This document shows positions 28,010 to 50,873 of a stretch of 64,000 nucleotides of DNA, piece by piece (within the stretch, counting starts at the first letter, position 1; each line of letters starts with the position of its first letter). Source of the DNA: Candidatus Woesebacteria bacterium GW2011_GWA1_44_23 (GTDB lineage: Bacteria > Patescibacteriota > Microgenomatia > UBA8517). The DNA lies in assembly GCA_001001045.1 (NCBI GenBank), contig LCIL01000005.1, positions 21,409-85,408 on the forward strand, in the 5' to 3' direction. The notes beneath the pieces were generated by a model. That model searched no databases. It saw only the letters and a list, made by a program, of their open reading frames with translations, and was not told the origin of the DNA. The position numbers and the translations under genes were made by a program.

Positions 28010-29007
28010 GATTCTTTTGTATTAAGCCCTGCCCGGATTTGGCTTTCGCGGGTAACTATGGCTCCGTAAAAAAGAATACTCAGGGAGAACAACAAAAACA
28101 TTGCCGCCTGACGCACATAAAATGGAGTCGTCGTATCAACCATCTGTTGATCCGGTGAAGCCGTGACCAAAAGCCAATTTCTGTTTCCCAAAGGTACGGG
28201 GGAATATGAAATCAGACGGCCGTCCCTAGCTAAACTCCCTTCCTTTGTCGTATTTAGGGCATCCTTGAGACTGTCGCTGACAGTTTGATTACCCAGAAAC
28301 GGTTCTTCGCCGGCTTCAAAAACCTTGACTCCCACTTTATCAGGCGTCTTGCTATCGTACAATAGATCCCCTTGCACACCTATCAGATACACCTCTGTAG
28401 CATCCGATATTTTCATTAACTCCAAATAGTGTTCCGTCAAAGGCTTCAATTTCGCCGAGGTAACTACAGCCCCTACAAAAACGCCGTTTTGAAATACCGG
28501 AGAGACCACCGGAATTATTACCTGGCCCTTGGTGCCGCCCATTCGGCTAACAATCGAGGTGCCAACCAAATATTCCCCTTCATCTGACCAGTTTTTGGCC
28601 CAGTCAAAATAATCACGGTCGGCCAGGGAAACTCCCACATCTTGCGTTCCCAAAACATTGGAGATAAACCTGACAATTCCGCGGCTGTCCGTTAATGCGA
28701 CTCCGGCAACCAGGCCGCTGTTGCTCCATTGAGTTACAAAGGCGTCTAAATCAGATTGGGTATTTTCACCCCAGCTTTCCATACTGCCCAACTTCGCAAG
28801 TACCGCAACCGAATTGCCGAACGTTTCGAAAAAAGCCTCAAGATTGCTGGCTTCAGCTCTCGTCACCATTTGTTGCTGATTTAAAAACTGGTTAGTGACC
28901 GCAGGTTTGACTCTCCAGCTTAGGATTACTAAAAAGGCAGCACCCAAACCCACTATCAAAAGAAGGCCAAATAACCAAATCCTGCCCGACAATGCTTTCC
29001 AAAACAT
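27994..29007 (-). CDS. membrane protein with periplasmic Cache-like sensor domain flanked by two TM helices, no output domain
   Basis: N-terminal TM helix IWLFGLLLIVGLGAAFLVIL, a 250-aa extracytoplasmic domain, and C-terminal TM helix AAMFLLFSLSILFYGAIV. Confidence 0.45.
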   Translation of the reverse strand: MFWKALSGRIWLFGLLLIVGLGAAFLVILSWRVKPAVTNQFLNQQQMVTRAEASNLEAFFETFGNSVAVLAKLGSMESWGENTQSDLDAFVTQWSNSGLVAGVALTDSRGIVRFISNVLGTQDVGVSLADRDYFDWAKNWSDEGEYLVGTSIVSRMGGTKGQVIIPVVSPVFQNGVFVGAVVTSAKLKPLTEHYLELMKISDATEVYLIGVQGDLLYDSKTPDKVGVKVFEAGEEPFLGNQTVSDSLKDALNTTKEGSLARDGRLISYSPVPLGNRNWLLVTASPDQQMVDTTTPFYVRQAAMFLLFSLSILFYGAIVTRESQIRAGLNTKESQKRL

Positions 29008-37648: not shown

Positions 37649-40600
37649 ATGGCAGTAACATACGTCAAAGCTAGTACCCCCAATACAGATGCGGCGGGAG
37701 CCTTTACAGTAACAGGTGCAGCTCCTGCTGTTGCTGGGAATATTATCATCCTTCAAATTTTTCAGGACGGTACTACTGACGGGGCGGTAACTCAAACCAG
37801 TGCTACCAATATTACTGCTCTAGATGGTACGGCTAATACATGGACTGCTATTACCGAACAGTCGGTAGGAGCATCAGACGAAGGTAGACAGTATCTATGG
37901 GTAGGGCGTTCAAGCGGAAGGTCTACTCCCACATTTACAGGCGGCAACACAACTTCAGAGGATCTTTACCTCAGGATGTATGAGTTTAGCGGAGTAGATG
38001 CTAATGCCACGACTTTATCTGGGATTCTTGAAAACGGTACTGCAGGAACTGTAGCTAACGGCACTGGAACATCTGCGTCCGTTTCTGATACAAGCGTTCA
38101 GACACTGGGAGATGGCCGGCTCGCATTAAATTTTATCGCTGTAAACGATGATCCCCAGGCAGCAGAACTAGCCGCAATGACTGGTGAAACAGGGGGGGAT
38201 TGGGCTTATCCTGTTGCTGCGTGGGGTTCTAGTTCTGGCACTGACGGTACAATCGCTTTAGTTACAGCTTCTATCCCTTCTTCGGGAACAATTGATGGAG
38301 GCTCAGATGCCATAACTTCAGCTGCTTGGGGGGTGATAGGCTTTGCCCTTAAACCTGAATTTACTCCAACAGTAGCTTTAAGTACCCCTGCAGATGACGC
38401 GACAGGAGTAAGTACCACCCCAGCCCTAGTTTTTACAGGAACAGATGCTAACTCAGATGAAGTGGAATATGAGGTACAGGTAGATACAGTAAACACTTTT
38501 GATTCTTCGTCAGCCACTATGGCTAGCAATAGTGAAAGTACTTATGACCATGATTACATTGATAATTATAATTCAGTACCTCCTTCATGGTATGGTCAGA
38601 CATTTACCCCACCTTTTATGGGACCCGTCACTTCAGTTAAGTTTTATTTAAAAGGTTCCGATGGTTTAACGGGTAACATGCCAGTTAGATTGTATGCCAC
38701 AGACACCTCTGGTACTCCAGTAGGTGAAATATTAGCCACATCAGCTAATTTGGATTTATCTAGTCTTTCAACTTCTGCTTATGAACTAGTAGAGTTTATA
38801 TTTAGTTCCCCATACACAGTTGAGTCTGGGGTTCTGTATGCATTAACTTTAGAAAATCTTAGTTCCTCTAACCTATATGTTGGTGCAGATATTAGTTCTC
38901 CTGCTTATACAAATGGTACTGCAATTAGTATGAGTCCCGGTGGTTACCTGACTGTTGCTAGTGATTTATGTTTTTATGTTTATAGTGGAGGTTCTCTTCT
39001 TGACATCTTCTCCCTCGCCGATAACGATGCTAACTGGGCAGGCACAGGAGCACCTAATCCCTTTCCTTCAGGAAATGAAATAACCTATACAGTACCGGCA
39101 GGAAGTGCTTTAGCCGCAGGAACTACTTATTACTGGAGAGTACGAGCTATTGACCCTCTAGGAAGTAATGCCTGGGGATCTTGGAGTCCTGGGGCACATA
39201 GTGGATATAGTGAGTTTACAACACAGGCAACAGGTTCATTTTCGCCTTCGATTTCTCCATCTGTAAGTCCAAGTGCGTCTCCTTCGGTATCCCCCTCAGT
39301 CAGTCCGTCTATCTCGCCTTCTGTAAGTCCCTCAGTTAGCCCTAGTGTTTCCCCAAGTCTATCTCCCAGCGTTTCTCCTTCTGCATCTGTTTCGCCATCA
39401 ATCTCACCCAGTGTTAGTCCTTCGGAAAGCCCATCAGTATCGCCCTCGGTCTCGCCTTCAGTTTCACCCTCTGCATCCATATCTCCATCGACCTCACCCA
39501 GTGTTAGTCCATCAGTAAGTCCCAGTGCAAGTGCTAGCCCATCGGTCTCACCATCGGCTAGTCCGTCGGTGTCTCCCAGCGTTTCTCCTTCCGTAAGTCC
39601 GTCGGCTTCTGTTAGTCCGTCTATGAGTCCGAGTGTATCGCCCTCTGTAAGTCCCTCTGCATCAGTTTCACCATCTATCAGTCCTTCTGTGTCTCCCTCC
39701 GTCAGCCCCAGTGTCAGCCCCAGTGTCTCACCCAGCGCAAGTATCTCTCCAAGTGTTAGTCCCAGCGTGTCGCCAAGTGCTTCTCCTTCTATTTCACCTT
39801 CCGTTTCTCCATCAGCTTCTATATCTCCGTCAGTTTCGGAAAGTGTAAGTCCATCCGTTAGCCCAAGTGCGAGTGTAAGCCCGTCGGAATCACCGTCAGT
39901 TAGTCCATCTGTATCTCCAAGCTTTAGCCCTTCGATCTCAGCCAGTATATCGCCAAGCATATCTCCGAGTGTGTCCCCTTCGGCTTCCGTATCCCCATCG
40001 GTTTCCCCCAGTATCAGCCCTTCTGTCTCCCCAAGTGCCAGCCCAAGTCAAAGCCCATCGGCATCAATTAGTCCTTCCGTAAGTCTATCCATTTCTCCTT
40101 CTTTCTCTCCGTCCGCATCCATTAGTCCCAGTGTCTCTCCCAGCATATCGCCCTCGATCAGTCCATCAGTATCCCCTTCGGAGTCTCCCTCTGCATCAGC
40201 TAGCCCATCTATTAGCCCTAGCGTATCTCCTTCTGTCTCGCCCAGTGCTTCTGTGTCCCCTTCGGTAAGTCCGTCTGCAAGTGTTTCGCCTTCTGTCTCC
40301 CCATCGGCCAGTCCATCTGTCTCTCCGAGTCAAAGTCCATCGATTAGCCCATCAATTAGTCCGAGTATATCTCCTTCCGTTTCGCCTTCAGCGTCGATTA
40401 GTCCGTCAATTAGTCAATCAGCAAGTCCGTCAGTGTCACCGAGTGCGAGTATTAGCCCTTCACTAAGTCCAAGCATGTCTCCTTCTGTTTCTCCTTCTGG
40501 GTCAATCTCACCCTCAATAAGTGCTTCCGTTTCGCCTTCTGTCTCCCCTTCAGCATCTATTTCTCCGTCAATAAGTCCTTCTATTAGTCCGTCTGTTTCC

Positions 40601-42538
40601 CCATCGACTAGTCCATCTGTCTCTCCGAGTCAAAGTCCATCGGCTTCGATTTCCCCGTCTGTCTCTCCAAGCGTTTCTCCTTCAATAAGTCCATCGGTAA
40701 GTCCAAGTTTGTCTCCTTCGGTAAGTCCTTCAGCTTCGGTTTCACCAAGTATCTCGCCAAGTTTGTCTCCTTCGGTTTCCCCCAGCGCAAGTATTTCACC
40801 TTCCATTTCTCCAAGCGTTTCTCCTTCGATAACTATATCATCGTCTATCAGTCCAAGTGTGTCACCCAGTGTCAGTCCATCGGTAAGTCCTTCGGTATCA
40901 TCTTCTCAAAGCCCTTCCGCATCAGTATCCCCATCAGTTTCACTGTCCGTAAGCCCAAGTGTATCTGCGAGCGTTTCCCCGTCGGTTTCCCCTTCAGCCG
41001 GATCAAGCGAGTCTCCATCACTTTCACCAAGTATAAGCCCATCAATTAGCCCCTCAGTTTCCCCATCTGTCAGTCCTTCGATTTCCCCTAGTGTTTCGCC
41101 ATCAATCAGTCCTTCTGCTTCGATTTCTCTATCTGTAAGCCCGTCGGTTTCACCATCAGTCAGTCCGTCGATAAGCGCTTCCGTTTCACCAAGCCCCAGT
41201 GTTTCTCCTTCGACTAGTGCGAGCATTTCTCCTTCCATTAGCCCATCAGTCAGTCTGTCGGTGTCACCCTCAATTAGTCCAAGTGTCTCTCCTTCGGTTT
41301 CACCAAGTATCTCGCCAAGTTTGTCTCCTTCGGTTTCCCCCAGCGCAAGTATTTCACCTTCCATTTCTCCAAGCGTTTCTCCTTCGATAATCAGCCCTTC
41401 GGTGTCACCAAGTATAAGCCCATCCATTTCGCCCAGCATCTCACCTTCTCAAAGTCCGTCAGTGTCCGTATCACCTAGCCAATCTCCCTCCGCCTCTCTG
41501 TCACCGTCAGTATCGCCCAGTGCAAGTATTAGCCCTTCAATAAGTCCAAGTGTCTCACCTTCGGTTTCACCTTCTGGATCAATCTCACCCTCAGTAAGCC
41601 CTTCTGTTTCACCTTCTGTCTCTCCTTCAGAATCTATTTCCCCGTCAATAAGCCCATCCCGCAGCCCGTCAGTTTCTCCATCCATCAGCCCGTCAGCAAG
41701 TCCGTCTGTGTCACCAAGCGCAAGTATTTCGCTGTCTATTAGCCTGAGTGCTTCTCCATCTGTTTCCGCCTCGATATCGCCGTCTGTTTCACCTTCTGTA
41801 AGTCTCAGCGTTTCTCCTTCGATAAGCCAATCGGTAAGTCCAAGTTTGTCTCCTTCGGTAAGTCCTTCAGCTTCGGTTTCACCAAGCGCAGGCTTTTCAA
41901 TTTCACCCAGCGTTTCACCGTCTCAAAGCCCTTCGGCTGCGGCTCCCTCAAGTCTCAGTCCATCCGTGTCTCCATCAATTTCTCCTTCAATTGCCATTTC
42001 AACCTCACTATCTCCAAGTGTGTCCCCTTCTATCTCAGCATCCCCATCAATACCGTCTTCAATATCTCTTTCTGTATCACCAAGTGCGAGTCTAAGTCCA
42101 AGCCTGAGCCCATCGGTCGGTCCTAGCGGGAGTCCGCCAGCTTTGCCCAGCACCAGTGCCTCTTTCTCTGTTAGCCCAAGTGCCTCACCGTCACTGTCTG
42201 CTAGTGCTTCTCCTACTGAATCAGCATCACCTTCACCTGCCACGGTGGTATATTCTGCCAGCGCCAGCCCGAGTGTTTCTCCGTCGATCAGCCCCTCTCC
42301 CGCCCGCTATGCATCACCAGAAAAGCCCAGCTTTTATTATGACTCCGCTATTGTTCTCCGGGATGTGGCAAATCGTGATGTTAACTTAAGTGGGCTTCAA
42401 GATACCATACCTTCATGGAACAATGCAGGCCGGCCGAAGAATTTAAAACCCGCCACATTAGGTTTCAATATTGAGACAAAGGATCTCGAATTATATGACG
42501 GATCATTATGGCATAGGCTGCCAATGAAAAAAGTATAG
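37649..42538 (+). CDS. giant Ser/Pro-repeat surface protein (1629 aa): N-terminal globular/FN3-like region, about 1000 aa of SPSxSP repeats, conserved C-terminal domain
   Basis: RBS ggagg upstream. N-terminal region includes ...TTYYWRVRAIDPLGSNAWGSWS. Repeats SPSVSPSISPSVSPSAS.... C-terminus ...PSWNNAGRPKNLKPATLGFNIETKDLELYDGSLWHRLP. Confidence 0.8.
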   Translation: MAVTYVKASTPNTDAAGAFTVTGAAPAVAGNIIILQIFQDGTTDGAVTQTSATNITALDGTANTWTAITEQSVGASDEGRQYLWVGRSSGRSTPTFTGGNTTSEDLYLRMYEFSGVDANATTLSGILENGTAGTVANGTGTSASVSDTSVQTLGDGRLALNFIAVNDDPQAAELAAMTGETGGDWAYPVAAWGSSSGTDGTIALVTASIPSSGTIDGGSDAITSAAWGVIGFALKPEFTPTVALSTPADDATGVSTTPALVFTGTDANSDEVEYEVQVDTVNTFDSSSATMASNSESTYDHDYIDNYNSVPPSWYGQTFTPPFMGPVTSVKFYLKGSDGLTGNMPVRLYATDTSGTPVGEILATSANLDLSSLSTSAYELVEFIFSSPYTVESGVLYALTLENLSSSNLYVGADISSPAYTNGTAISMSPGGYLTVASDLCFYVYSGGSLLDIFSLADNDANWAGTGAPNPFPSGNEITYTVPAGSALAAGTTYYWRVRAIDPLGSNAWGSWSPGAHSGYSEFTTQATGSFSPSISPSVSPSASPSVSPSVSPSISPSVSPSVSPSVSPSLSPSVSPSASVSPSISPSVSPSESPSVSPSVSPSVSPSASISPSTSPSVSPSVSPSASASPSVSPSASPSVSPSVSPSVSPSASVSPSMSPSVSPSVSPSASVSPSISPSVSPSVSPSVSPSVSPSASISPSVSPSVSPSASPSISPSVSPSASISPSVSESVSPSVSPSASVSPSESPSVSPSVSPSFSPSISASISPSISPSVSPSASVSPSVSPSISPSVSPSASPSQSPSASISPSVSLSISPSFSPSASISPSVSPSISPSISPSVSPSESPSASASPSISPSVSPSVSPSASVSPSVSPSASVSPSVSPSASPSVSPSQSPSISPSISPSISPSVSPSASISPSISQSASPSVSPSASISPSLSPSMSPSVSPSGSISPSISASVSPSVSPSASISPSISPSISPSVSPSTSPSVSPSQSPSASISPSVSPSVSPSISPSVSPSLSPSVSPSASVSPSISPSLSPSVSPSASISPSISPSVSPSITISSSISPSVSPSVSPSVSPSVSSSQSPSASVSPSVSLSVSPSVSASVSPSVSPSAGSSESPSLSPSISPSISPSVSPSVSPSISPSVSPSISPSASISLSVSPSVSPSVSPSISASVSPSPSVSPSTSASISPSISPSVSLSVSPSISPSVSPSVSPSISPSLSPSVSPSASISPSISPSVSPSIISPSVSPSISPSISPSISPSQSPSVSVSPSQSPSASLSPSVSPSASISPSISPSVSPSVSPSGSISPSVSPSVSPSVSPSESISPSISPSRSPSVSPSISPSASPSVSPSASISLSISLSASPSVSASISPSVSPSVSLSVSPSISQSVSPSLSPSVSPSASVSPSAGFSISPSVSPSQSPSAAAPSSLSPSVSPSISPSIAISTSLSPSVSPSISASPSIPSSISLSVSPSASLSPSLSPSVGPSGSPPALPSTSASFSVSPSASPSLSASASPTESASPSPATVVYSASASPSVSPSISPSPARYASPEKPSFYYDSAIVLRDVANRDVNLSGLQDTIPSWNNAGRPKNLKPATLGFNIETKDLELYDGSLWHRLPMKKV
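39240..42290 (+). repeat. coding tandem repeat array, 9-nt/18-nt periodicity (SPS[VIAL]SP)
   Basis: Direct reading of the translation. Antisense ORFs (GE/TD/LG-rich) are artefacts of the same repeat. Confidence 0.85.
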
Positions 42539-42818
42539 TATCTTGCAATATTTTTTGACTATAAGCGTATTCTTAAAGCCGTATCTAACTACCCATAGTT
42601 CCTTATAAGCTTCTGGTACTCTCCTACTCCTATAACCATTACCGATCTCCAATATATTAACTAAATCATGATTTTACTCATTTGTTGCATTTTGCGGGCT
42701 TCCATGAATTATAAGGGGAATTTCCTAGATAGCTTCCTGAATAATCGGATAGTTAAGAAGGCTCAGTCTACTAAAAGACTCTTGTAAATCATAATCGCTT
42801 TATACATACTTGTAATCT

Positions 42819-42844
42819 ACTTGCTATCTTCAGTGATAGCAAGT
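42819..42844 (+). promoter_or_regulatory. 10-bp-arm inverted repeat (ACTTGCTATC-N6-GATAGCAAGT) 12 nt upstream of the GTG start of the second Y1-like gene
   Basis: Seen directly. Candidate operator or 5' UTR hairpin. Confidence 0.35.
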
Positions 42845-42855
42845 AACTTAAAACT

Positions 42856-43902
42856 GTGACTGCCCATGATTATCAAGCCAAACTAAATGGGGTACTATAT
42901 TCCCATGTTTATCGTGATCTCGCATCTGAAAAAATTTTCATTGATAACGAAGATTATCAGGCATTCGTAAACTTCTTAAATGAATACTTGTCTGACAAAA
43001 ATGTTGATGATAGTAAAAAAATATTTACAATAAGGGGGCATACTTACCAAGGAGTCCCCCGTTTACCTAAAAACTTCTCTAAACAGATTGAGCTTTTAGC
43101 CTATAAGTTAGAGCCAAATCGTTTTGACTTCCTGATAAGAGAAAATGTTCCTGGGACTACTCAAAAGTTCATAAGAGCCGTATCAACAAGGTACGCCCTA
43201 TACTACAACAAGAAACATCATCGAACCGGTTCCCTATTCAAGGATACTTACAAACTGGAAAGAATCAGCGATCCTGCACTACTACCAGGTCTAATTCGTA
43301 GCCTCCACAGTAACTTTAGTAAAAAAGACGGTGTGCCCGATCATGCTTACTCTTCATGCCCTGAATATCTTGGTCAAAGAGCATCGAATTGGATCAATTC
43401 GCAGGCTATACTTTCTAATGAAGGACTGGGTGATCAAAAGCTGTACCCGGAAAAGGGTAAACCGGAAACCGGTGTACGTGTCACCCGTTATCGCCCAAGA
43501 TCCAAAGCCAGGGTACCAGAAATAATATTATCCATTGCGATTCTGGCTATGCTAATAGCTCAAAGTATATTAAGAATCGAAACTTCTTCAACATCAAAAG
43601 CTTCATACTCGCCTCCTTCATACGCTACGGTTCTGGGTGACAAAAGGGAAGCAACGGAAGACGAAAATATAAAAACCGTAGAAGTGAATCAAGGGAAGGT
43701 TTTAATTGATACCGTTGATAATTTGGAAAGTGTAGATATCTATCGGGACGCTTTGTTATCGTCACTTAAAATTGGCGAGGCTAAGGATAATGACATCTTT
43801 GAGCTTGTTTCTGAAAGCCCGGGCTGGTATCAAGTAAAACTTATTAATGGGTCAACTGGCTATGTCTCGTCAGAATATTCGGAAATAATAACGAATTATT
43901 AA
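42856..43902 (+). CDS. IS200-like Y1 transposase domain fused to TM helix and SH3b domain (copy 2, HuH motif degenerated to FDF)
   Basis: GVLYSHVYRDLASEKIFIDNEDYQAFVNFL...IELLAYKLEPNRFDFLIRE...RYALYYNKKHHRTGSLFKDTYK...; TM helix IILSIAILAMLIAQSIL; SH3b ...SPGWYQVKLINGSTGYVSSEY. Confidence 0.7.
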   Translation: MTAHDYQAKLNGVLYSHVYRDLASEKIFIDNEDYQAFVNFLNEYLSDKNVDDSKKIFTIRGHTYQGVPRLPKNFSKQIELLAYKLEPNRFDFLIRENVPGTTQKFIRAVSTRYALYYNKKHHRTGSLFKDTYKLERISDPALLPGLIRSLHSNFSKKDGVPDHAYSSCPEYLGQRASNWINSQAILSNEGLGDQKLYPEKGKPETGVRVTRYRPRSKARVPEIILSIAILAMLIAQSILRIETSSTSKASYSPPSYATVLGDKREATEDENIKTVEVNQGKVLIDTVDNLESVDIYRDALLSSLKIGEAKDNDIFELVSESPGWYQVKLINGSTGYVSSEYSEIITNY

Positions 43903-43903
43903 A

Positions 43904-44572
43904 ATGATCAAAAAAATTATGTTATATGGCAGTTTCTTGGCTGCCAGCTCTGCTGATACGGCCGTTTTCCTTGCGTCTAATGATTATTTTCATCTTGCGC
44001 TTGCCATCCTTCTTTATTTCCCGTTAATTTATATTGCTTTTATAATATTTCCTCGCAGAACCGAATTTGCTGGGAATGTCCCAATCCACCAGGGAAATGG
44101 AATAGAGCCAAACCTGCTAACCACTAACAAGATCGGACAATTTTCCGGCTCCCCTTCCCCTTCGACCGACAGCGTCGAAGTTTCCGACATCAATAAACGG
44201 GTGTTTCTCAAAATGATTGGGGCTACGGGTTTATCCTTCTTCATTTCTTCTCTTATTTCAAAAAGGTTGCCTTCTCATGTTTTCGGGCAATCTGAAGAAC
44301 CAACAACAACCTCTATCATAGATTCCACAGGAGAGGCAGTAGACCCTGCCAAGCACCACCCCACTGACAGCTATAAAATTTCCGAGGTCGACTATGGAAT
44401 TAATACCTATTATGGCTTTATTGATGAAAATGATGGCTGGTTCATTATGGAACAAGATACAAATGCCGGAACCTACCGTTATATAAAAGGCAATGCGAAT
44501 TTTCCTGATAATTGGAGGAGCCGCGAAAGTCTTACATATGACTATTACAATAAAATTTTTGCCAAATCGTGA
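43904..44572 (+). CDS. partner membrane protein (copy 2): KR-FLK motif and conserved C-terminal domain
   Basis: DINKRVFLKMIGATGLSFFISS; C-terminus YGFIDENDGWFIMEQDTNAGTYRYIKG...YDYYNKIF. Start lies 1 nt after the upstream stop. Confidence 0.6.
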   Translation: MIKKIMLYGSFLAASSADTAVFLASNDYFHLALAILLYFPLIYIAFIIFPRRTEFAGNVPIHQGNGIEPNLLTTNKIGQFSGSPSPSTDSVEVSDINKRVFLKMIGATGLSFFISSLISKRLPSHVFGQSEEPTTTSIIDSTGEAVDPAKHHPTDSYKISEVDYGINTYYGFIDENDGWFIMEQDTNAGTYRYIKGNANFPDNWRSRESLTYDYYNKIFAKS

Positions 44573-45050: not shown

Positions 45051-46496
45051 ATGGCAACACGGTTGTATCTACCATCAACGGGGACTCCCGCGGTAACCCC
45101 CGCTTATAGTGCGTCTTGGACCGGAACTGACGAGGCGTCAAGGCTAAGTGCTGTAACAACAAAAATCTCTTCGGCGATGGCCTCTGCTTCGACCACAACC
45201 GATACCAGTAAAGTCCCGGATGCTTATCTCATGAGGCAGTACGTTTCTGATCCTTTGACCACTCAAACAATTTTAGCCCAAACAGTCAAATGGCAAATTA
45301 GAGCCTCTGAGACAAACCTATCAAACAATATTTTTACCGCAATTACTATTAGAAGTTGGGACGGTGCTTCTACTTTTCAAACACTGCTTGCTTTAACCTA
45401 TGACGGTACGGAGTTAACAACGTCTCTGGTCAACAGACAATTTAGCGCCACAACCACAGAGGTAAGTATTACTTCCGGAGACAGGTTAATTATTGAAATC
45501 GGAGTAGGTGGTGACCCTACACCCTCCGGATCCGACTTTCATCACGGATCCTTGCGTATTGGAGACGCATCATCAACGGACCTGCCAGAAAATGATACCG
45601 ATACAAACGATTACAATCCCTGGGTCGAGTTTGCAAATACTTTGACATTCGCTGTGGCCGGCCCTTCGTTTTCGCCATCGGTTTCTCCTTCAGTTTCTCC
45701 TTCGGTTTCTCCTTCTATTTCCCCTAGTATTTCTCCGTCAGTTTCTCCCAGTATTTCTCCTTCTATTTCACCTTCAATTTCACCATCTGTTTCCCCTAGT
45801 ATTTCTCCGTCAGTTTCTCCCAGTATTTCTCCTTCTATTTCACCTTCAATTTCACCATCTGCCTCGATATCCCCTTCTATTAGTCCAAGTGAGTCTCCTT
45901 CGGTTTCACCATCAATCAGCCCGTCAATTTCACCATCTGAATCACCATCGACAAGTCCTTCGGTAAGTCCCAGTGCTTCACCGTCGGTCTCACCGTCAGA
46001 AAGTCCATCCGAAAGCCCATCAGAATCTCCTTCGGTTTCTCCGTCAATTTCTCCCAGCGCTTCGCCTTCGGTATCACCATCCGAATCTCCGTCAGCGAGT
46101 CCTTCTATATCCCCTTCAATATCACCCAGTCCGAGTATGTCTCCTTCAACCTCACCAAGCACATCTCCTTCAATAAGCCCTTCCGAATCACCATCGGCTA
46201 GCCCTTCAATTAGCCCTAGCTTATCTCCATCTGTTTCTCCATCAGAAAGTCCATCGGAGAGCCCGTCCGTTTCTCCAAGTGTCTCACCGTCTGTTTCACC
46301 TTCCATTGCCTCCAGCTTTTCACCTTCTATCTCACCTTCGGAAAGCCCGTCGGTGTCCCCGTCGGTGTCCCCGTCCCTTTCCCCGAGTGCCTCCCCAAGC
46401 ATTAGTCCGTCTGTTTCTCCTTCAGCTTCGATTTCACCATCTTATTCACCGTCTGTTTCACCTTCAGTCTCTCCATCGCAATTAGCCCTTCCATAA
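45051..46496 (+). CDS. Ser/Pro-repeat surface protein, N-terminal part (unique 200-aa domain plus SPS repeats); probably continuous with the next two ORFs
   Basis: N-terminus MATRLYLPSTGTPAVTPAYSASWTGTDEASRL.... Repeats begin about aa 205. The frame ends inside the repeat at a junction sequence that recurs at 47740. Confidence 0.6.
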   Translation: MATRLYLPSTGTPAVTPAYSASWTGTDEASRLSAVTTKISSAMASASTTTDTSKVPDAYLMRQYVSDPLTTQTILAQTVKWQIRASETNLSNNIFTAITIRSWDGASTFQTLLALTYDGTELTTSLVNRQFSATTTEVSITSGDRLIIEIGVGGDPTPSGSDFHHGSLRIGDASSTDLPENDTDTNDYNPWVEFANTLTFAVAGPSFSPSVSPSVSPSVSPSISPSISPSVSPSISPSISPSISPSVSPSISPSVSPSISPSISPSISPSASISPSISPSESPSVSPSISPSISPSESPSTSPSVSPSASPSVSPSESPSESPSESPSVSPSISPSASPSVSPSESPSASPSISPSISPSPSMSPSTSPSTSPSISPSESPSASPSISPSLSPSVSPSESPSESPSVSPSVSPSVSPSIASSFSPSISPSESPSVSPSVSPSLSPSASPSISPSVSPSASISPSYSPSVSPSVSPSQLALP

Positions 46497-49110
46497 GCCC
46501 CTCCCTTTCTCCCTCGGTTAGTCCGAGTCTGTCTCCATCGGTCTCCCCGAGTGCCTCCCCAAGCATTAGTCCGTCTGTTTCTCCTTCAGCTTCGATTTCA
46601 CCATCTATGAGCCCCTCCGAATCACCATCTACGTCTCCTTCCACGTCACCGTCGATTTCGCCTTCGGTTTCACCAAGCCCGAGTATTAGTCCCTCAGTAA
46701 GTCCGAGTTTTTCTCCGTCAGTTTCATCGTCAATCTCACCAAGCATTTCACCCTCCGTCTCGCCGTCACCGTCGATATCTCCTTCAATAAGTCCGTCCGT
46801 TTCACCTTCCCCCGGCTCCAGTTTTTCTCCATCCATAAGTCCGTCAATCTCGCCTTCGATTAGCTCTAGTGTTTCGCCGTCAGTCAGCCCGTCGGTATCA
46901 CCATCTCCCTCCGTCTCGCCTTCGGTTTCGCCAAGCCCGAGTATTAGTCCCTCAATAAGCCCGAGTGTCTCTCCGTCAGTCTCTCCCAGTGTAAGTTCAT
47001 CGGTTTCTCCCTCAGTATCGCCATCGGCGTCGATCTCGCCATCTATATCTCCAAGCAAGTCGCCATCAGTGTCTCCAAGTGTATCCGTCAGTATCTCCCC
47101 TTCGGTTTCGCCTTCACCATCCATCTCGCCTTCAGTAAGCCCATCGGTAAGTGCGTCGATCTCTCCTTCTATCAGTTCCAGTGTCTCGCCTTCTGTCTCC
47201 CCAAGTCCTAGCATGTCCTCATCGATAAGCCCGTCGGCGTCCCCGTCTGTTAGTCCGTCCGTTTCCTCATCTGTTAGTCCGTCTATTTCCCCGTCACCGT
47301 CAGCATCACCTTCGAATAGCCCATCGGTAAGTCCATCGATCTCTCCTTCAGTAAGTCAAAGCATTTCCCTTTCGGTTTCTCCTTCCCCATCCGTCTCGCC
47401 TTCGGTAAGCCCATCGGTTTCCCTGTCTGCATCGCCGTCCGGATCGCCGTCTGTTTCACCATCGGTTTCTCCCTCACTGTCTGTTTCGCCATCCGTCTCC
47501 CCGAGCCCAAGTGCTTCACCATCCGTAAGTGCCTCGATCTCTCCTTCAATAAGTCCGTCCGTTTCGCCTTCCCCCGGCTCCAGTTATTCTCCTTCCATAA
47601 GTCCGTCAATCTCGCCTTCAATTAGCCCGAGTCTGTCTCCATCGGTCTCCCCGAGTGCCTCCCCAAGCATTAGTCCGTCTGTTTCTCCTTCAGCTTCGAT
47701 TTCACCATCTTATTCACCGTCTGTTTCACCTTCAGTCTCTCCATCGGTGTTTCGGCATCCATTAGCCCATCTACCTCGCCCTCGGTTTCCATATCTCCGT
47801 CTATTTCACCCAGTAAATCTCCGTCTATTTCACCAAGTGTTTCTCCCAGTATTTCCGCCTCTATTTCTCCAAGTCCTAGTATTTCGCCTTCAATTAGCCC
47901 AAGTGTGTCTCTTTCGGTGTCTCCCAGTGTTAGCCTGTCAATTTCTCCCTCCGTCTCGCCATCACCTTCCCTGTCCCCGTCCTTTAGTCCAAGCCAATCT
48001 CCTTCGGTTAGTCCGAGTGTTTCCCCGTCAGTCAGCCCGTCGGTATCACCATCTCCTTCGATCTCGCCATCGGTGTCACCAAGCGCGAGTATCAGCCCTT
48101 CAATAAGTCCGAGTATTTCTCCGTCAGTTTCTCCCAGCGTAAGTTCATCGGTTTCTCCCTCGGTATCGCCCTCACCGTCGATTTCACCTTCAATGAGCCC
48201 ATCGGTAAGTCCATCAATCTCTCCTTCAATAAGTCAAAGCATTTCCCCTTCGGTTTCGCCCTCTATTGGTGTAAGTATTTCTCCATCGGTTAGTCCCAGC
48301 GTCTCAGTATCCAAATCCCCGAGTATTTCACCGTCAAAGTCTCCGTCCTTAAGTCCGTCGGTTTCACCCTCGCCTTCCCGTTCGCCCTCTCTTAGCCCAA
48401 GTGAGTCCGCTTCTGTTTCACCCTCTGCTTCACTTTCGCCGTCGGAATCCGCTTCGGTAAGTCCTTCCTTCTCACCATCGGCTTCCATCTCACCCTCAAG
48501 AAGCCCTTCTATTTCACCTTCTATAAGTCCCAGTATTTCACCCTCAAAGTCTCCATCAGCAAGCCCGTCCACTTCTCCCTCTGCTTCAATCTCGCCATCT
48601 TTGAGCAAGTCTGCCTCACCTTCAAGATCGCCTTCAGTTTCCCCGTCAGGATCGGCGTCAATTTCACCTTCATCAAGCTCATCGGTCTCACCTTCGGTAT
48701 CAATCTCGCCAAGTGTTTCTCCTTCGGTTTCTCCAAGCCCCAGTCTGTCACCTTCTGTAAGTCCAAGTAAATCGCCCTCTCTTTCTCCGTCAATCTCACC
48801 AAGCTTTTCTCCGTCGGTTTCTATCTCCCCTTCATTAAGCGCATCGGTCTCGCCAAGCCCGAGCGTTTCTCCTTCCCCTTCCCTCTCCCTGTCCATTTCA
48901 CCAAGCGTTTCTCCGTCGGCTTCTATATCACCTTCGGTTTCGCCACCAAATTCAATTTCACCTTCCATTTCCCCCTCAAGCGCTCCTGTTGCGAGCGCCT
49001 CGCCTTCGGTTTCCCCGTCCCCATCAGCTGCCGGGGTGGCTTCTTCTGTCTCGCCGTCACCTTCTCCGGCGGTAATTGTTTACTCGGCCAGTGCCAGCCC
49101 ATCAACCTCT
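45660..49110 (+). repeat. coding SPSxSP tandem repeat array spanning three ORFs in three frames
   Basis: Seen directly. An 80-100 bp sub-repeat recurs at about 46370, 46531 and 47641. Confidence 0.8.
46607..48106 (+). CDS. SP-repeat ORF (frame open from about 46481); middle segment of the same repeat gene
   Basis: Pure SPSxSP repeat translation. The frame differs by one from its neighbours. Confidence 0.45.
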   Translation: MSPSESPSTSPSTSPSISPSVSPSPSISPSVSPSFSPSVSSSISPSISPSVSPSPSISPSISPSVSPSPGSSFSPSISPSISPSISSSVSPSVSPSVSPSPSVSPSVSPSPSISPSISPSVSPSVSPSVSSSVSPSVSPSASISPSISPSKSPSVSPSVSVSISPSVSPSPSISPSVSPSVSASISPSISSSVSPSVSPSPSMSSSISPSASPSVSPSVSSSVSPSISPSPSASPSNSPSVSPSISPSVSQSISLSVSPSPSVSPSVSPSVSLSASPSGSPSVSPSVSPSLSVSPSVSPSPSASPSVSASISPSISPSVSPSPGSSYSPSISPSISPSISPSLSPSVSPSASPSISPSVSPSASISPSYSPSVSPSVSPSVFRHPLAHLPRPRFPYLRLFHPVNLRLFHQVFLPVFPPLFLQVLVFRLQLAQVCLFRCLPVLACQFLPPSRHHLPCPRPLVQANLLRLVRVFPRQSARRYHHLLRSRHRCHQARVSALQ

Positions 49111-49365
49111 TTCAGTCCTTCCATCCCCCCAGTTCCGGAAGAGCCGATACTGTATAAAAATCCAACTATTTTCAGAAACAAAAGAGTATCTGTAGGTGTG
49201 AGCTATGTTCCAAGCGGACAGCCAAGACTCCCGTCATGGAACACGGCGGGAAGACCCAAAAACCCAAGGGCAAGAGTCGTCGGATTTAATTTCGCAACTT
49301 CCAGTTTAGAATATTGGAATGGATCAAAGTGGTTAATACTACCTATGAAGAGGATCAAAACTTAG
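47905..49365 (+). CDS. SP-repeat ORF (frame open from about 47750) carrying the conserved C-terminal domain
   Basis: C-terminus ...RLPSWNTAGRPKNPRARVVGFNFATSSLEYWNGSKWLILPMKR. Confidence 0.55.
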   Translation: MSLSVSPSVSLSISPSVSPSPSLSPSFSPSQSPSVSPSVSPSVSPSVSPSPSISPSVSPSASISPSISPSISPSVSPSVSSSVSPSVSPSPSISPSMSPSVSPSISPSISQSISPSVSPSIGVSISPSVSPSVSVSKSPSISPSKSPSLSPSVSPSPSRSPSLSPSESASVSPSASLSPSESASVSPSFSPSASISPSRSPSISPSISPSISPSKSPSASPSTSPSASISPSLSKSASPSRSPSVSPSGSASISPSSSSSVSPSVSISPSVSPSVSPSPSLSPSVSPSKSPSLSPSISPSFSPSVSISPSLSASVSPSPSVSPSPSLSLSISPSVSPSASISPSVSPPNSISPSISPSSAPVASASPSVSPSPSAAGVASSVSPSPSPAVIVYSASASPSTSFSPSIPPVPEEPILYKNPTIFRNKRVSVGVSYVPSGQPRLPSWNTAGRPKNPRARVVGFNFATSSLEYWNGSKWLILPMKRIKT

Positions 49366-49445
49366 CAGGTTGGGCATCTTGTAAGGAGAGACCTTTCAAG
49401 GAGGCTAACAGGAAGATTAACCATTAACCTATCAAATTTTTACTA

Positions 49446-49486: not shown

Positions 49487-49681
49487 ATGGCAATTTCTTC
49501 ACCGGTACTTGTTGAGATAGGTCAGGGTTTGTCTTTAATGGTCGGTCTCCCGACGATCGCATCTTGGAATTCTCAGAAGCGTCCGCAAAAAGCAAAAAGG
49601 GGTACGTTCGGATTTAACACCCAGACAAAAAGTTTGGAATATTGGGACGGGTCGGGGTGGTACACTGCCAAGCTTAGTTAG
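49487..49681 (+). CDS. 64-aa stand-alone copy of the conserved C-terminal domain of the SP-repeat proteins
   Basis: MAISSPVLVEIGQGLSLMVGLPTIASWNSQKRPQKAKRGTFGFNTQTKSLEYWDGSGWYTAKLS aligns with the C-termini of the 37649 and 47905 products. Confidence 0.5.
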   Translation: MAISSPVLVEIGQGLSLMVGLPTIASWNSQKRPQKAKRGTFGFNTQTKSLEYWDGSGWYTAKLS

Positions 49682-49731: not shown

Positions 49732-49935
49732 ATGCTTAATTTCATTAAAAATATCGGTCCCGTAGAGTGGGTGGTTATTCTTCTTATTCTGATAATAATT
49801 TTCGGCCGCAAAATACTTGTAAGCCTTGGCCGTGCCAGTGGTGAAACAGTTAGGGAACTGAAAAGCGTTAAGAAAAGCTTGACCGACGCTGTTGAAGGAA
49901 CAGAGGACAAGCCCGAGAAGAAGGAGGTGTCTTAA
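49732..49935 (+). CDS. tatA: twin-arginine translocase subunit TatA/E
   Basis: N-terminal TM helix followed by the FG hinge: WVVILLILIIIFGRKILVSLGRASGETVRELK. Confidence 0.7.
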   Translation: MLNFIKNIGPVEWVVILLILIIIFGRKILVSLGRASGETVRELKSVKKSLTDAVEGTEDKPEKKEVS

Positions 49936-49941
49936 AAATTT

Positions 49942-50103
49942 ATGTTTCAATCGATAGGGACAACAGAGTGGATAATAATTGCCGTCTTGGTACTTTTACT
50001 CTTCGGAGGAAAAAAGATTCCGGAATTTTTCAAAGGCATCGGTGAGGCCGTCAGGGAGTTTAAGAAAGCTTCAAAAGATACCGACGAGAAAAAAGAAGGA
50101 TAA
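49942..50103 (+). CDS. tatA: second TatA/E-family protein (53 aa; below the ORF-track cutoff)
   Basis: [53 protein letters not shown]. Confidence 0.65.
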
Positions 50104-50123
50104 TCCAGTAGAATGTTCTCAAG

Positions 50124-50873
50124 GTGGAAAACATCAAGGCTCTCGGATCCCCCGAAGTTAAAGAAGCGCTAGCCAAGTACTCTCACTATTTGGTTGAAGC
50201 CCGCAAAAAGATCATATTTACGCTTATTGTTTTCGTTCTGGCAACTTTCGTGGGTTTTTTCTTTTATGAACAGATAATAAAATTTCTGGTTGATTTCCTG
50301 AGTCTTACCGGAATCAACATAGTTTTCACTTCCCCATTCCAGTTTATCAATCTTGCAATCAGTTGCGGCGTGGCAACCGGCATAATATTTTCCTTTCCGC
50401 TTCTTGTCTTCCAAATCATGTCCTTTTTGAAGCCGGCTCTCAGAGGAAAAGAATATAAAATGATCATGAGGCTCCTGCCCTTTTCCCTTATTCTTTTCGC
50501 TTTGGGGTTTTCATTCGGGGTTTTTATTATGAAATGGCAGGTCCAGATATTTTTAAGCAGGGCAGTTTCAATCGGCATCGGCAACATCCTGGACATAAGT
50601 AAGCTTTTATCGGTAGTTCTTTTAACCTCCGCTCTGATGGGGATAGGTTTCCAGTTTCCTATCCTGTTGCTTCTTCTTCTCAGAATCGGTCTAATTACCA
50701 ACGGTCAACTTCGTAAAATCCGTAAATGGGTTTATCTCGGTTCTTTCGTGTTCGCGCTGCTGCTGCCGCCGGATTCAATTTTGGCAGACGTACTTTTATC
50801 GCTGCCTTTGATAATCCTTTACGAAATTACCCTGATTCTAGATAGAACTTTTGACGGTCACCGTTTAACCTAA
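50124..50873 (+). CDS. tatC: twin-arginine translocase subunit TatC (GTG start)
   Basis: Six TM helices, TatC-like ...FTSPFQFINLAISCGVATGIIFSFPLLVFQIMSFLKPAL. Confidence 0.8.
   Translation: MENIKALGSPEVKEALAKYSHYLVEARKKIIFTLIVFVLATFVGFFFYEQIIKFLVDFLSLTGINIVFTSPFQFINLAISCGVATGIIFSFPLLVFQIMSFLKPALRGKEYKMIMRLLPFSLILFALGFSFGVFIMKWQVQIFLSRAVSIGIGNILDISKLLSVVLLTSALMGIGFQFPILLLLLLRIGLITNGQLRKIRKWVYLGSFVFALLLPPDSILADVLLSLPLIILYEITLILDRTFDGHRLT

Follow-up and report, generated by a model that had tools for sequence, protein, structure and literature searches.

The window, i.e., the whole 64-kb stretch of DNA analysed, contains two genes of one protein family, here called copy 1 and copy 2, each followed directly by the gene of a membrane-protein partner (Table 1). 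It had been predicted from the sequence that copy 2, the subject of this work, joins a Y1-like domain to a transmembrane (TM) helix and an SH3b domain, and this architecture was borne out. The helix is present in the AF2 model, and the C-terminal part matches Pfam SH3_3 (PF08239) at 33.1 bits (cut-off 27) and the PDB entries 2krs, 4krt and 9ovi. A TM-like hydrophobic segment was found in 149 of the 161 family members sampled. The N-terminal domain has the HUH-core fold (a beta-alpha-beta-beta-alpha-beta sheet plus the helix that bears the Tyr position) with an inserted beta-hairpin at aa 55–66. There was no Pfam match in copy 2 to a C-terminal HTH domain of the subclass 2.1 type, and domain searches found no winged-helix (OmpR-type) DNA-binding domain. 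An origin in a defence system or a phage was rejected, neither protein of the pair having a PADLOC or PHROGs match. In public databases the proteins of the family are labelled only “hypothetical” or “SH3b domain-containing protein.”

Table 1. Features of the copy 2 locus and related sites, in window coordinates.
Feature	Position	Strand	Description
Canonical family element CTTGCAAAGTCTCTTCTTACAAG upstream of copy 1	26221..26243	.	Overlaps promoter TTGCAA, 17 nt, TAGTTT, 6 nt to ATG
Copy 1, HFH-clade paralog	26257..27417	+	386 aa; H90, H92 and Y150 intact
Copy 1 partner	27419..28009	+	196 aa; RR motif, DFDRRTFLK
Retained left-end element, candidate operator	42807..42845	.	TACTTGYWA boxes at 42807 (+), 42818 (+) and 42837 (-); palindrome made up of the second and third
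Predicted sigma-70-like promoter	42821..42849	+	TTGCTA, 17 nt, TAACTT; ends 6 nt before GTG
Copy 2 gene	42856..43902	+	GTG start, 348 aa; predicted nuclease-dead RAYT-like Y1/HUH domain, one TM helix, SH3b; RFD clade
Y1/HUH (RAYT-like) N-domain	42856..43416	+	aa 1–187; predicted on the cytoplasmic side
R89-F90-D91 at HuH metal-binding position	43120..43128	+	Both His replaced (translation, alignments)
S149 at catalytic Tyr position	43300..43302	+	TnpA-REP Y115, copy 1 Y150 (translation; profile alignment to 4er8)
“SS” proximal-tail motif Y165-S-S-C-P-E-Y-L	43348..43371	+	Aligned to TnpA-REP “FSTF” (PMC6006769 Table 1)
Transmembrane helix EIILSIAILAMLIAQSILRIE	43519..43581	+	aa 222–242, helix in AF2 model; N-in/C-out
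SH3b domain	43696..43890	+	aa 281–345; predicted on the extracytoplasmic side; Pfam SH3_3 and PDB matches
Partner gene	43904..44572	+	222 aa; two N-terminal TM helices, variable linker, Tat-like signal-anchor, C-terminal beta-meander domain of ~65 aa
Tat-like motif D-I-N-K-R-V-F-L-K in partner	44186..44212	+	Family consensus D-x-[DN]-[KR]-R-x-F-L-K-x-[IV]-G-A-T-G
Solo family element CTTGTAAGGAGAGACCTTTCAAG	49378..49400	.	“Right-end” orientation; between SP-repeat genes and small-ORF/tat operon
tatA, tatA, tatC	49732–49935, 49942–50103, 50124–50873 (span 49732..50873)	+	Pfam matches

The homology to the Y1/HUH transposases holds at the level of the family and not of the single sequence, since copy 2 by itself remains below threshold (15.2 bits with Pfam Y1_Tnp, PF01797, against a cut-off of 23; copy 1 reaches 19.5), a family profile that includes the soluble relatives finds the RAYT structure 4er8 (E 1.6e-6), in register at the HuH, Y115 and SS motifs, and one relative (P0013) bears a precomputed PF01797 match. 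PDB searches with the single sequence and with the A1 profile returned SH3b matches only, and NCBIfam REP_Tyr_transpos gave no more than 11.6 bits, for copy 1 alone. The family to which copy 2 belongs is a domesticated RAYT of TnpAY1 class 2, nearest to subclass 2.1, the TIRYT type.

When both copies were aligned to 4er8, the HuH histidines were not conserved in copy 2. The original prediction had placed the degenerate motif at F-D-F; both histidines are indeed lost, but alignments and translation put the register at R89-F90-D91, with R and D in place of the two His and F as the intervening residue. It had further been proposed that a C-terminal Tyr motif was kept in AYSSCPEYLGQ. This segment pairs instead with “FSTF” of TnpA-REP, a non-catalytic tail motif that is listed as “SS” for TnpAY1 subclass 2.1 (PMC6006769, Table 1), and its S167 and Y171 are invariant throughout the family. 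In the profile alignment to 4er8 the catalytic Tyr is Y150 of copy 1 (“TRYLHRS”), where copy 2 has S149 (“IRSLHSN”), and the class 2 signature Y-x-x-x-N-P is absent from copy 2 (“RSLHSN” vs. “RYLHRSP” in copy 1). In TnpA-REP the change Y115F at the corresponding residue gives a catalytic mutant (PMC8266576). Copy 2 is therefore an inactive derivative more thoroughly than had been claimed and, because both metal-binding histidines and the nucleophilic Tyr have been lost, it is almost certainly unable to cut or join DNA.

To call such a domain degenerate is nevertheless misleading. R-F-D was present in 20 of 161 sampled sequences and is fixed across one clade (hereafter the RFD clade), together with S, D, N or E at the Tyr position, and this dead domain is the most conserved region of the clade, with pairwise identities of 64% against 39–41% in the linker and SH3b. 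The residues that are invariant across both clades (RFD and HFH) fall in the RAYT core. The full catalytic triad is found in 26 of 56 membrane-anchored loci vs. 36 of 38 soluble relatives. Even copy 1 is not clearly “active”: its ortholog at locus L063, 80% identical, lacks the first His and reads RFH, yet has a dN/dS of 0.10 over the N-domain. This value was taken from the comparison of copy 1 with L063 and not from copy 2, because the contigs carrying copy 2, those of the aquifer samples JGI 3300025117 and 3300025012 included, are all nucleotide-identical and its next ortholog is only 52% identical. Most family members have lost catalytic residues yet stay under strong purifying selection. 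With ~250 clusters at 50% identity, found in Woese-, Levy-, Davies- and Roizmanbacteria and in WWE3, the membrane-anchored family is specific to Microgenomates. Literature searches retrieved no Y1 protein described as anchored in the membrane or fused to SH3b, and we regard this large family of ultra-small Microgenomates (candidate phyla radiation) as previously undescribed.

The two copies are homologous over their whole length and not just along low-complexity stretches (BLASTP E 6e-50). The identity of 35–40% initially estimated between them holds for the N-terminal 187 aa (38%) but not for the complete proteins (28%). As had been suggested, copy 2 was duplicated along with its partner: the partners fall into the same two clades as the Y1 proteins, and the pairwise identities of Y1 proteins and partners are correlated (r = 0.61). 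This was an ancient and not a recent event. In other genomes copy 2 is conserved as a positional ortholog beside tatA-tatA-tatC, an M23 peptidase gene and rho; its locus is chromosomal and syntenic, with the M23 peptidase gene and rho downstream, and is not mobile. In the window tatA-tatA-tatC lies 5.2 kb 3' of the partner, and in orthologous loci it is directly adjacent. Downstream tat genes accompany the RFD-clade pairs of the window and of loci L001/L002/L054, L003 and L010. Other neighbours are of envelope type, namely glycosyltransferases, LysM/M23 peptidase and giant surface repeat proteins.

The partner gene begins 1 nt past the stop of copy 2, as originally noted, and its product is a paralog of the copy 1 partner (33% identity, E 1e-42). 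Wherever the 3' sequence is long enough, practically every TM-SH3b locus has a partner gene as its immediate downstream neighbour, no soluble relative has one there, and the family gene is apparently co-transcribed and translationally coupled with this three-TM partner. The third helix of the partner is preceded by a Tat-type (K/R)RxFLK motif, conserved in all 25 partners aligned, most of which have KR and not RR. The copy 2 partner is one of the KR type (N-K-R-V-F-L-K-M-I-G-A-T-G), and that of copy 1 has RR. D95, R99, L102, K103 and G109 are invariant in the partner alignment. Tat HMMs gave sub-threshold scores, for the copy 1 partner only (Pfam TAT_signal, 13.7 bits vs. a cut-off of 22.7; TIGR01409, 11.7 vs. 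16.7). The AF2 model of the partner has a pLDDT of 60, and its C-terminal domain found no Foldseek match in the PDB (best E 0.6).

The palindrome described upstream of copy 2 at 42819..42844 is real, although its arms are of 11 bp and not 10 (42818–42828 and 42835–42845, with a 6-nt loop). No other perfect hairpin in the 64-kb window has arms of 11 bp or more (0.07 such hairpins would be expected at random), and orthologs and paralogs have homologous elements immediately before their start codons. Among 31 soluble relatives, about 20 show the layout of a REPtron/TIR, with one strong palindrome just 5' of the ATG and another at the stop codon or shortly beyond it. The palindrome of copy 2 is the left-end element of the ancestral transposase gene, which has been retained. 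ORFs of the HFH clade contain the upstream element in reverse complement, at aa 205–225, where the soluble genes stop. At two or fewer mismatches this internal element was detected in 25 of ~48 HFH loci vs. none of seven RFD loci, and the best match inside the copy 2 ORF has four mismatches, so that copy 2 has no internal copy; it has no downstream copy either. The ancestral gene was fused to the TM helix and SH3b through read-through across its right-end hairpin.

The same elements overlap putative promoters. The arrangement TTGNNA, 16–18 nt, TANNNT, 5–6 nt and start codon is present in 45 of 66 distinct family loci, and the mRNA of copy 2 is predicted to be leaderless. In 37 of these 66 loci we found the dyad CTTGNAN-N9-NTNCAAG, which ends 12–14 nt before the start codon in most (12–15 nt in 32 of the 37). 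Its outer bases (CTTG/CAAG), some of them outside the hexamers, carry ~1.5–2 bits, and several other positions of the spacer ~1.2–1.7 bits. The RFD clade has a variant with longer arms and N10–11 between them, in which a box is repeated in tandem with a period of 11 bp; of seven independent loci, about four (the window, L003, L055 and L057) show a clear inverted arm, whereas that of L001, L005 and L010 is weak. A simple sigma-70 consensus scanner called no promoter at the copy 2 palindrome (7–8 of 12 matches). The sequence CTTGCAA occurs 16 times in the window against 9.9 expected, i.e., it is not enriched and therefore is not a genome-wide -35 variant. Exact canonical elements are restricted to two in the window (at 26221 and 49378), besides the variant of copy 2, and to 48 in 918 kb of loci. 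The latter lie for the most part immediately 5' of a family gene, and the others mostly inside such a gene or at most a few hundred bases away. A guide tetranucleotide like the GTAG of E. coli REPs was discarded, CTAC/GTAG being found only within the stem at some RFD-clade loci, which is not equivalent.

The reading that we favor, tentatively and at slightly less than an even chance, is that copy 2 encodes a membrane-tethered DNA-binding regulator that uses the retained element on its own promoter. The N-terminal domain would stay at the cytoplasmic face of the membrane as a sequence- or structure-specific nucleic-acid-binding module, and would recognize the left-end element (the TACTTGYWA boxes plus the palindrome of 11-bp arms, 42807–42845). 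Both hexamers (-35 and -10) of the predicted leaderless promoter overlap with this element, whose occupation could tune or repress the transcription of the two genes. Signals from the side of the cell wall might enter through the external SH3b and through the small beta domain of the partner, putatively exported by Tat. The logic would be that of a bitopic membrane regulator with a co-encoded membrane partner (ToxR/ToxS), in which an exapted transposase domain replaces the winged helix. Binding of DNA by the dead domain is something that we infer from its conservation together with the element, and the conservation of the upstream element could largely reflect promoter constraint or the site of another regulator. 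Membrane-tethered regulation of a double-stranded promoter is plausible, but we know of no precedent for it with the HUH fold, RAYTs acting on single-stranded hairpins.

The alternative that survives best, possible although clearly on the doubtful side, is that the dead domain is a protein-protein scaffold that, for example, holds the cytoplasmic linker or the Tat signal of the partner, or contacts TatC, in envelope biogenesis or cell-wall anchoring, the palindrome being then a promoter plus a transposase relic. The obligate pairing with a start/stop-coupled partner that carries a Tat-like motif is what such a scaffold would predict, as are the tat genes adjoining RFD-clade pairs, the neighbours with envelope functions, a hairpin without covariation and the free loss of catalytic residues over the family. 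However, conservation extends to parts of the spacer and to flanks of the hexamers that a promoter alone does not need, the type of element follows the protein clade, and the residues invariant between clades sit in the RAYT core. Besides, since the soluble relatives keep palindromes flanking their genes, recognition of the hairpin is the ancestral function of the domain.

RAYT and IS200 enzymes work on hairpins in ssDNA (PMC8266576, PMC6006769), and a tethered HUH domain might accordingly bind hairpin ssDNA on the inner side of the membrane, and also nick it in the paralogs with an intact triad such as copy 1, in DNA uptake or in the anchoring or processing of chromosomal copies of the 23-nt element, copy 2 being a non-cutting binder or a regulator of copy 1. 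The complete triad of copy 1, the presence of both paralogs in one genome, the solo element at 49378 and the extra copies in or near family genes at other loci are in line with this activity. We nevertheless hold it to be distinctly unlikely: the element is not dispersed (two exact copies and the copy 2 variant in 64 kb; 48 exact copies in 918 kb, mostly at family genes), more than half of the membrane-anchored proteins lack the complete triad, and no competence or pilus genes were seen beside the pairs at the loci examined.

The palindrome is very unlikely to act as RNA and not as a DNA site for a protein, for instance as an attenuator, a hairpin in the 5'-UTR or a terminator for the SP-repeat gene that precedes it. 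Its stem of 11 bp is perfect and it stands between a long upstream gene and a start codon; at four loci (L017, L074, L062 and L080) the element is 31–43 nt 5' of the start, and a promoter located beyond it would place it within the transcript. Against this, the stem has no T-run, the terminator scan called nothing at the palindrome, and the upstream gene ends ~280 nt before (stop at 42538). Two positions of the stem are usually unpaired in the elements of the family, and covariation on the upstream element was 0.092 vs. 0.077 in shuffles (50 of 500 shuffles reached 0.092), a neutral result with which structured RNA was rejected as the main explanation. The constant spacing of 5–6 nt from TANNNT to the start codon also suits a leaderless promoter. 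Finally, that copy 2 is a decaying, pseudogenising duplicate of an active membrane-anchored transposase is hardly credible, for although all three catalytic residues have gone, the ORF is intact, the RFD state is retained in syntenic orthologs at 42–61% identity and conservation within the protein is highest in the N-domain.

Returning to the membrane-tethered regulator, a more ambitious form of it would be the exaptation of a Y1/HUH domain to signal transduction, a dead RAYT domain, tethered to the membrane and coupled to the external SH3b and to a Tat-inserted partner, sitting on its ancestral hairpin or dyad, now the core of a leaderless promoter, and relaying signals from the cell wall or the host surface to transcription. 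We consider this form unlikely, on balance. If true, it would represent a new class of one-component membrane regulator in ultra-small CPR bacteria and the TnpA counterpart of the TnpB-derived TldR repressors, with a frozen right-end element that records the fusion event. Irrespective of this, a lineage-wide family of ~250 clusters, membrane-anchored, with the SH3b predicted to face the cell wall and a partner with a Tat-like motif always alongside, has kept its cognate element, one copy on the promoter and a second one inside the ORF of the sister clade at the point of fusion. The right-end element within the ORF is an unusually clear molecular record of the capture of a mobile-element gene, and the family is a testable candidate for envelope-to-DNA signalling in Microgenomates bacteria.

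RAYTs are the textbook case of a domesticated bacterial transposase and, to our knowledge, all those described are soluble and keep their catalytic residues. Among the mobile relatives, IS200/IS605 TnpA (IS608, ISDra2) resembles copy 2 in the subterminal hairpins that flank the gene, the left-end one adjoining the gene start. These enzymes have a Y-x-x-x-Q motif, are obligate dimers and belong to multi-copy, mobile elements often linked to tnpB, whereas the locus of copy 2 is single, syntenic and chromosomal, without tnpB and without catalytic residues. The closest known group is TnpAY1 subclass 2.1 or TIRYT (Quentin et al., 2018, PMC6006769; group 1 of Bertels), with which copy 1 and the soluble relatives share NH[YF]H, Y[IV]HLNP, the SS tail motif and a size of ~220–240 aa; TIRYT genes and those of the soluble relatives are both bracketed by inverted elements, and the SS motif is retained in copy 2. 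Subclass 2.1 proteins (~238 aa) have intact catalytic motifs and a C-terminal HTH-like domain (DnaA_C, HTH_23 or HTH_28), while copy 2 (348 aa) has lost the motifs and has a tail of TM helix and SH3b; the text of PMC6006769 makes no mention of a transmembrane or SH3 architecture. TnpA-REP, the E. coli RAYT (PDB 4ER8; TnpAY1 subclass 2.2), has the HuH, Y115 and tail motifs in register with the copy 2 family, and its gene is likewise tied to a cognate palindrome. However, it is a soluble enzyme of 165 aa with HMH and Y115, in contrast to the RFD, S149, inserted beta-hairpin, TM helix and SH3b of copy 2, and copy 2 has neither a GTAG-type guide nor, in the 64-kb sequence, a dispersed population of REPs.

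Outside the transposases, Tat signal-anchors are known from Rieske proteins, such as the three-TM Rieske of actinobacteria and the chloroplast Rieske with a natural KR motif. The predicted topology of the partner is alike, with N-terminal helices, a cytoplasmic (K/R)RxFLK and a hydrophobic anchor helix, and by analogy a small, folded domain at the C-terminus would be taken through the membrane by this anchor via Tat; unlike that of Rieske proteins, the domain has no Fe-S or any known fold. ToxR/ToxS, CadC and TcpP/TcpH represent bitopic transcription regulators that sit in the membrane and are encoded together with a membrane partner. The logic proposed for copy 2 would be the same, in that a single TM helix joins a DNA-binding domain in the cytoplasm to a sensor domain outside, and in both the next gene 3' specifies a partner in the membrane that likewise has an external domain. 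A winged-helix/OmpR-type domain is lacking in copy 2, as is any homology to ToxR, and the resemblance is functional and architectural only. TldRs are nuclease-dead repressors derived from TnpB. As with TldR (see also PMC10691335 for exapted TnpB), a component of the IS200/IS605 world would have lost its nuclease residues and been exapted for a host role, probably regulatory, with its nucleic-acid recognition kept, the difference being that TldRs are soluble and come from TnpB (RuvC fold, RNA-guided) and not from a Y1 TnpA.

All four open reading frames of the original prediction, i.e., two genes for proteins with a Y1-like domain, a TM helix and an SH3b domain (copy 1 and copy 2) and the membrane-protein gene directly 3' of each (the partner), are present in the window, and their coordinates are listed in the table below together with those of other relevant features. 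The two Y1-TM-SH3b proteins align over their full length (BLASTP, E 6e-50). Their paralogy holds, but the identity of 35–40% first attributed to them applies to the N-terminal 187 residues (38%) and not to the whole (28%). For the partners, identity amounts to 33% (E 1e-42). SH3_3 scores above the Pfam threshold in both copies, and Y1_Tnp gives 15.2 bits in copy 2 and 19.5 bits in copy 1, both under the cut-off of 23. In the databases the window's own protein is a "hypothetical protein" or "SH3b domain-containing protein" of Candidatus Woesebacteria.

Coordinates of the gene pairs, upstream elements and neighboring features in the window
Feature	Position	Strand	Remarks
Copy 1 gene	26257..27417		386 aa ORF
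Copy 1 partner	27419..28009		196 aa ORF
dCache_1-only membrane protein	27994..29007	-	337 aa
Giant SP-repeat proteins	37649..42538, 45051..46496, 46607..49365		hundreds of S-P-S-[VIA] repeats, globular N-terminal domains
Palindrome	42818-42828, 42835-42845		perfect 11-bp arms TACTTGCTATC / GATAGCAAGTA, 6-nt loop
Copy 2 predicted promoter	42821-42826, 42844-42849		TTGCTA, 17 nt, TAACTT, 6 nt, GTG
Copy 2 gene	42856..43902	+	GTG start, 348 aa ORF
Copy 2 partner	43904..44572		222 aa ORF
Solo exact 23-nt dyad element	49378-49400		right-end orientation, CTTGTAAGGAGAGACCTTTCAAG
Small ORF upstream of tat	49487..49681	+	also in loci of other genomes or contigs: L003 7896-8099, L002 3800-3976

An AlphaFold2 model of copy 2 built with 15 homologs (mean pLDDT 69.6, 70–90 in the N-domain) places a beta/alpha N-domain at aa 14-186, the TM helix at 222-242 and an SH3b beta-barrel at 281-345. 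Single sequences searched against PDB sequences matched only SH3b domains. A profile that included the soluble relatives (Y1 proteins without TM-SH3b) matched 4er8, the E. coli RAYT TnpA-REP, at E 1.6e-6. In this alignment the family motifs mpnHfHll, ltrYiHlnpv and YSSy correspond to LPEHMHCI, HVDY(115)IYINPV and FSTF of TnpA-REP, whose catalytic mutant is Y115F (PMC8266576). These equivalences place the HuH and Tyr positions at H90, H92 and Y150 in copy 1 and at R89, D91 and S149 in copy 2. Both histidines are therefore lost in copy 2, as had been proposed from an "FDF" motif, although the register was one residue off (R89-F90-D91). The supposedly retained Tyr motif AYSSCPEYLGQ is not the nucleophile but the SS motif of the proximal tail, assigned by Quentin et al. 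to TnpAY1 subclass 2.1 (PMC6006769). Copy 2 thus very probably contains a RAYT-type HUH fold deprived of its catalytic residues. With six Lys/Arg just N-terminal of the TM helix, one just C-terminal and no signal peptide, the N-terminal domain is predicted to be cytoplasmic, and the SH3b and partner C-terminal domains to be outside the cell.

A word-based search recovered only 14 relatives. The family HMM, run against 1.84 billion representatives, gave 252 clusters at E <= 1e-30, 4,708 at <= 1e-10 and 15,097 at <= 1e-3. We sampled 161 sequences (the top 150 representatives, the first hits and both window copies), of which 142 had an SH3b domain and 149 a TM-like segment. In our scans of species genomes and metagenomes the long form fell within Microgenomates-type Patescibacteria (Woese-, Levy-, Davies- and Roizmanbacteria, WWE3), the nearest species genome being Candidatus Woesebacteria RIFCSPLOWO2_01_FULL_39_10. 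The soluble relatives (ca. 220 aa) come from other CPR groups, Omnitrophota, Planctomycetota, Bacillota and others, and carry the subclass 2.1 signatures NH[FYIV]H, YIHLNP and YSSYPEYLG. Counted over distinct loci, their HxH and Tyr triad is intact in 36/38 cases, against only 26 of the 56 membrane-anchored genes. Over the sample, HxH plus Tyr was kept in only 59/161 sequences. R-F-D, found in 20/161, marks the clade of copy 2 (RFD clade; that of copy 1 is the HFH clade), with D, S, N or E at the Tyr position. Many other members show separate substitutions, e.g., His or Phe at the Tyr position beside an HxH, or SFH, QFH and SFN. Taken as a whole, the family seems not to depend on DNA cleavage.

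The RAYT-type domain is nonetheless under purifying selection. Within the RFD clade the catalytically dead N-domain has the highest mean pairwise identity (64%, against 41% for SH3b and 39% for the linker). L063, an 80%-identical ortholog of copy 1 from a related organism (contig Ga0208958_1001084, 6959-8116), has lost the first HuH His (RFH), and its N-domain gives a dN/dS of 0.10 against copy 1. A pseudogene or decaying duplicate is excluded for copy 2, because the RFD state is clade-wide, the N-domain is the best-conserved region and the dN/dS of the copy 1/L063 pair is low. The sample that yielded L063 (JGI 3300025117) also contains contigs identical to the window. One RFD-clade member of 308 aa (L053, 682-1608, and L005, 1476-2402) has no SH3b domain, and 3' of its partner gene lie several unrelated ORFs, with no tat genes there.

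Wherever flanking sequence sufficed, essentially all TM-SH3b loci had a partner homolog directly 3', its start codon overlapping the Y1 stop codon or 0–3 nt from it; none was found beside soluble relatives. The division of the partners into two clades mirrors that of the Y1 proteins, with correlated pairwise identities (r = 0.61), and this bears out the proposed duplication of the two genes together. All partners begin with two TM helices, after which come an FPRK motif, a variable linker and a conserved motif, D-x-[DN]-[KR]-R-x-F-L-K-x-[IV]-G-A-T-G, then another hydrophobic helix, the third, and at the C-terminus a conserved domain, modeled as a four-stranded beta-meander (pLDDT ca. 88) for which the structure search gave no match. 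The motif resembles the Tat consensus S/T-R-R-x-F-L-K, but KR is commoner than RR and the Tat HMM scores stayed below threshold.

At the loci L001/L002/L054, L003 and L010, a small ORF and tatA-tatA-tatC come after the RFD-clade pair. Gene order in the window is the same, on to an M23/LysM peptidase gene and rho, but with an epimerase gene inserted after tatC and the SP-repeat genes (45051-49365) between partner and tat. This conserved chromosomal neighborhood makes copy 2 a positional ortholog. HFH-clade pairs (copy 1, L004) are surrounded by glycosyltransferase genes. The small ORF is conserved (58–67 aa, directly 5' of tatA-tatA-tatC), and the motif it contains, RP..K..G.FGFN....S.EY.DG..W, is also found at the C-terminal end of the first giant SP-repeat protein; a further match (E 6e-7) is to the N-terminal part of functionally unassigned phage proteins, PHROG 1325. 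The SP repeats generate long spurious antisense ORFs, and a domain similar to the N-terminal ones of these giant proteins is encoded near the RFD-clade pair of L053 (5615-6130). Beside copy 1, the convergent dCache_1 gene overlaps the 3' end of the partner by 16 nt, and its product has this sensor as sole domain, with no output domain. On the 5' side, the gene taken for an O-OTase (24221..26149) shows at Pfam E <= 0.001 only a C-terminal TPR, and no family for its polytopic N-terminal part.

The palindrome before copy 2 is perfect, as first described, but with arms of 11 rather than 10 bp. No other such hairpin occurs in the window (random mean 0.07, first-order Markov with dinucleotide frequencies). 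We aligned the 75 nt 5' of the start codon in 66 distinct loci. A dyad CTTGNAN-N9-NTNCAAG was found in 37/66, mostly ending 12–14 nt before the start codon (12–15 nt in 32/37, a few 19–43 nt upstream). In 45/66 there is TTGNNA, 16–18 nt and TANNNT ending 5–6 nt before the start codon. The consensus reads ggtaCTTGCAAagtCTCTyCTTwCAAGnTAnnnT-N6-ATGCCTGCC, with ca. 2 bits in CTTG, 1.5–2 in CAAG and 1.4–1.5 in the T, A and T of TAnnnT. From the hexamer spacing and the 6-nt distance, transcription would be expected to start on the A of the start codon, and the family mRNA would accordingly be leaderless. The copy 2 promoter conforms to this layout. A simple promoter scanner made no call at these sites. 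ATGCCTGCC represents the first nine nt of family genes (Met-Pro-Ala; 26257-26265 in the window and most other loci) and is conserved as DNA although the proteins are only ca. 40% identical, which could reflect a 5'-end constraint on a leaderless mRNA. In the variant peculiar to the RFD clade the arms are longer (CTACTTGC...GCAAGTAG), their spacing is N10-11 and another direct box lies 11 bp farther upstream; the window, L003, L055 and L057 have it, L001, L005 and L010 only in part. Three of the four TACTTGYWA words in the window lie within the 39-bp upstream stretch of copy 2.

The soluble relatives each have a strong lineage-specific palindrome immediately 5' of the start codon, and ca. 20/31 an inverted copy at or just past the stop codon (gene position ca. 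650–770), as in the REPtron/TIR layout of RAYTs and TIRYTs. In membrane-anchored genes of the HFH clade the upstream element recurs in reverse complement within the ORF (residues ca. 205–225, typically CTTGAAAGGAGAGACCTTGCAAG, often coding LERRDLA), just beyond the end of the Y1 domain, where soluble genes stop. It is exact in L007, L008, L009 and L026 and within two mismatches in 25 of ca. 48 HFH-clade loci (chance ca. 0.02 per locus), against 0/7 RFD-clade loci; in copy 1 it is degenerate (four mismatches). The frame in which it is read differs between L008 and the other loci, an argument for DNA-level conservation. Most simply, the family would have originated when a hairpin-flanked RAYT/TIRYT gene was read through past its right-end element into TM-SH3b coding sequence lying downstream; an alignment gap indicates that this segment has since been deleted in the RFD clade. 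Copy 2 still has the ancestral flanking element, in a form specific to its clade and placed exactly on top of the predicted promoter. Two exact element matches in 64 kb are ca. 100-fold more than chance predicts for a pattern of 12 fixed bases. The solo match, situated 13 nt past the end of an SP-repeat gene and 87 nt 5' of the small ORF/tat operon, may represent either a second operator or a dispersed copy of REP-like kind.

As to function, we tentatively propose a mechanism that may well prove wrong: the membrane-tethered dead domain would still bind the upstream element and so control its own operon, with the SH3b and partner C-terminal domains supplying the input from outside. Its strongest competitor is a scaffold function within an envelope or Tat-related complex, in which case the element would be no more than a promoter and a relic; a promoter as such does not require the conserved C 5' of TTG, the CAAG preceding the -10 hexamer or parts of the spacer. 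We consider it less likely that the protein handles ssDNA at the membrane or that the hairpin acts at the RNA level. In a pair-count test, 42 distinct elements gave no covariation signal, and stem positions 5-19 and 8-16 are usually unpaired, so that the element is kept as a dyad-symmetric sequence, not demonstrably as a hairpin.

Compared with known systems, the copy 2 protein belongs to the TnpAY1 lineage as a derived form whose motifs are closest to those of subclass 2.1 and whose structure is closest to that of TnpA-REP. However, the HuH motif and Tyr that define the enzymes of this lineage are both missing, as is the helix-turn-helix tail of subclass 2.1, and we therefore file it as an exapted membrane-anchored pseudo-transposase and not as a RAYT. 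Neither our literature searches nor the main classification paper (PMC6006769) provided a Y1 protein fused to a TM or SH3b segment. The proposed regulation would resemble, by analogy and in its working only, membrane regulators of the ToxR/ToxS type, while as an evolutionary event the family is like the TldR repressors, nuclease-dead proteins derived from TnpB.
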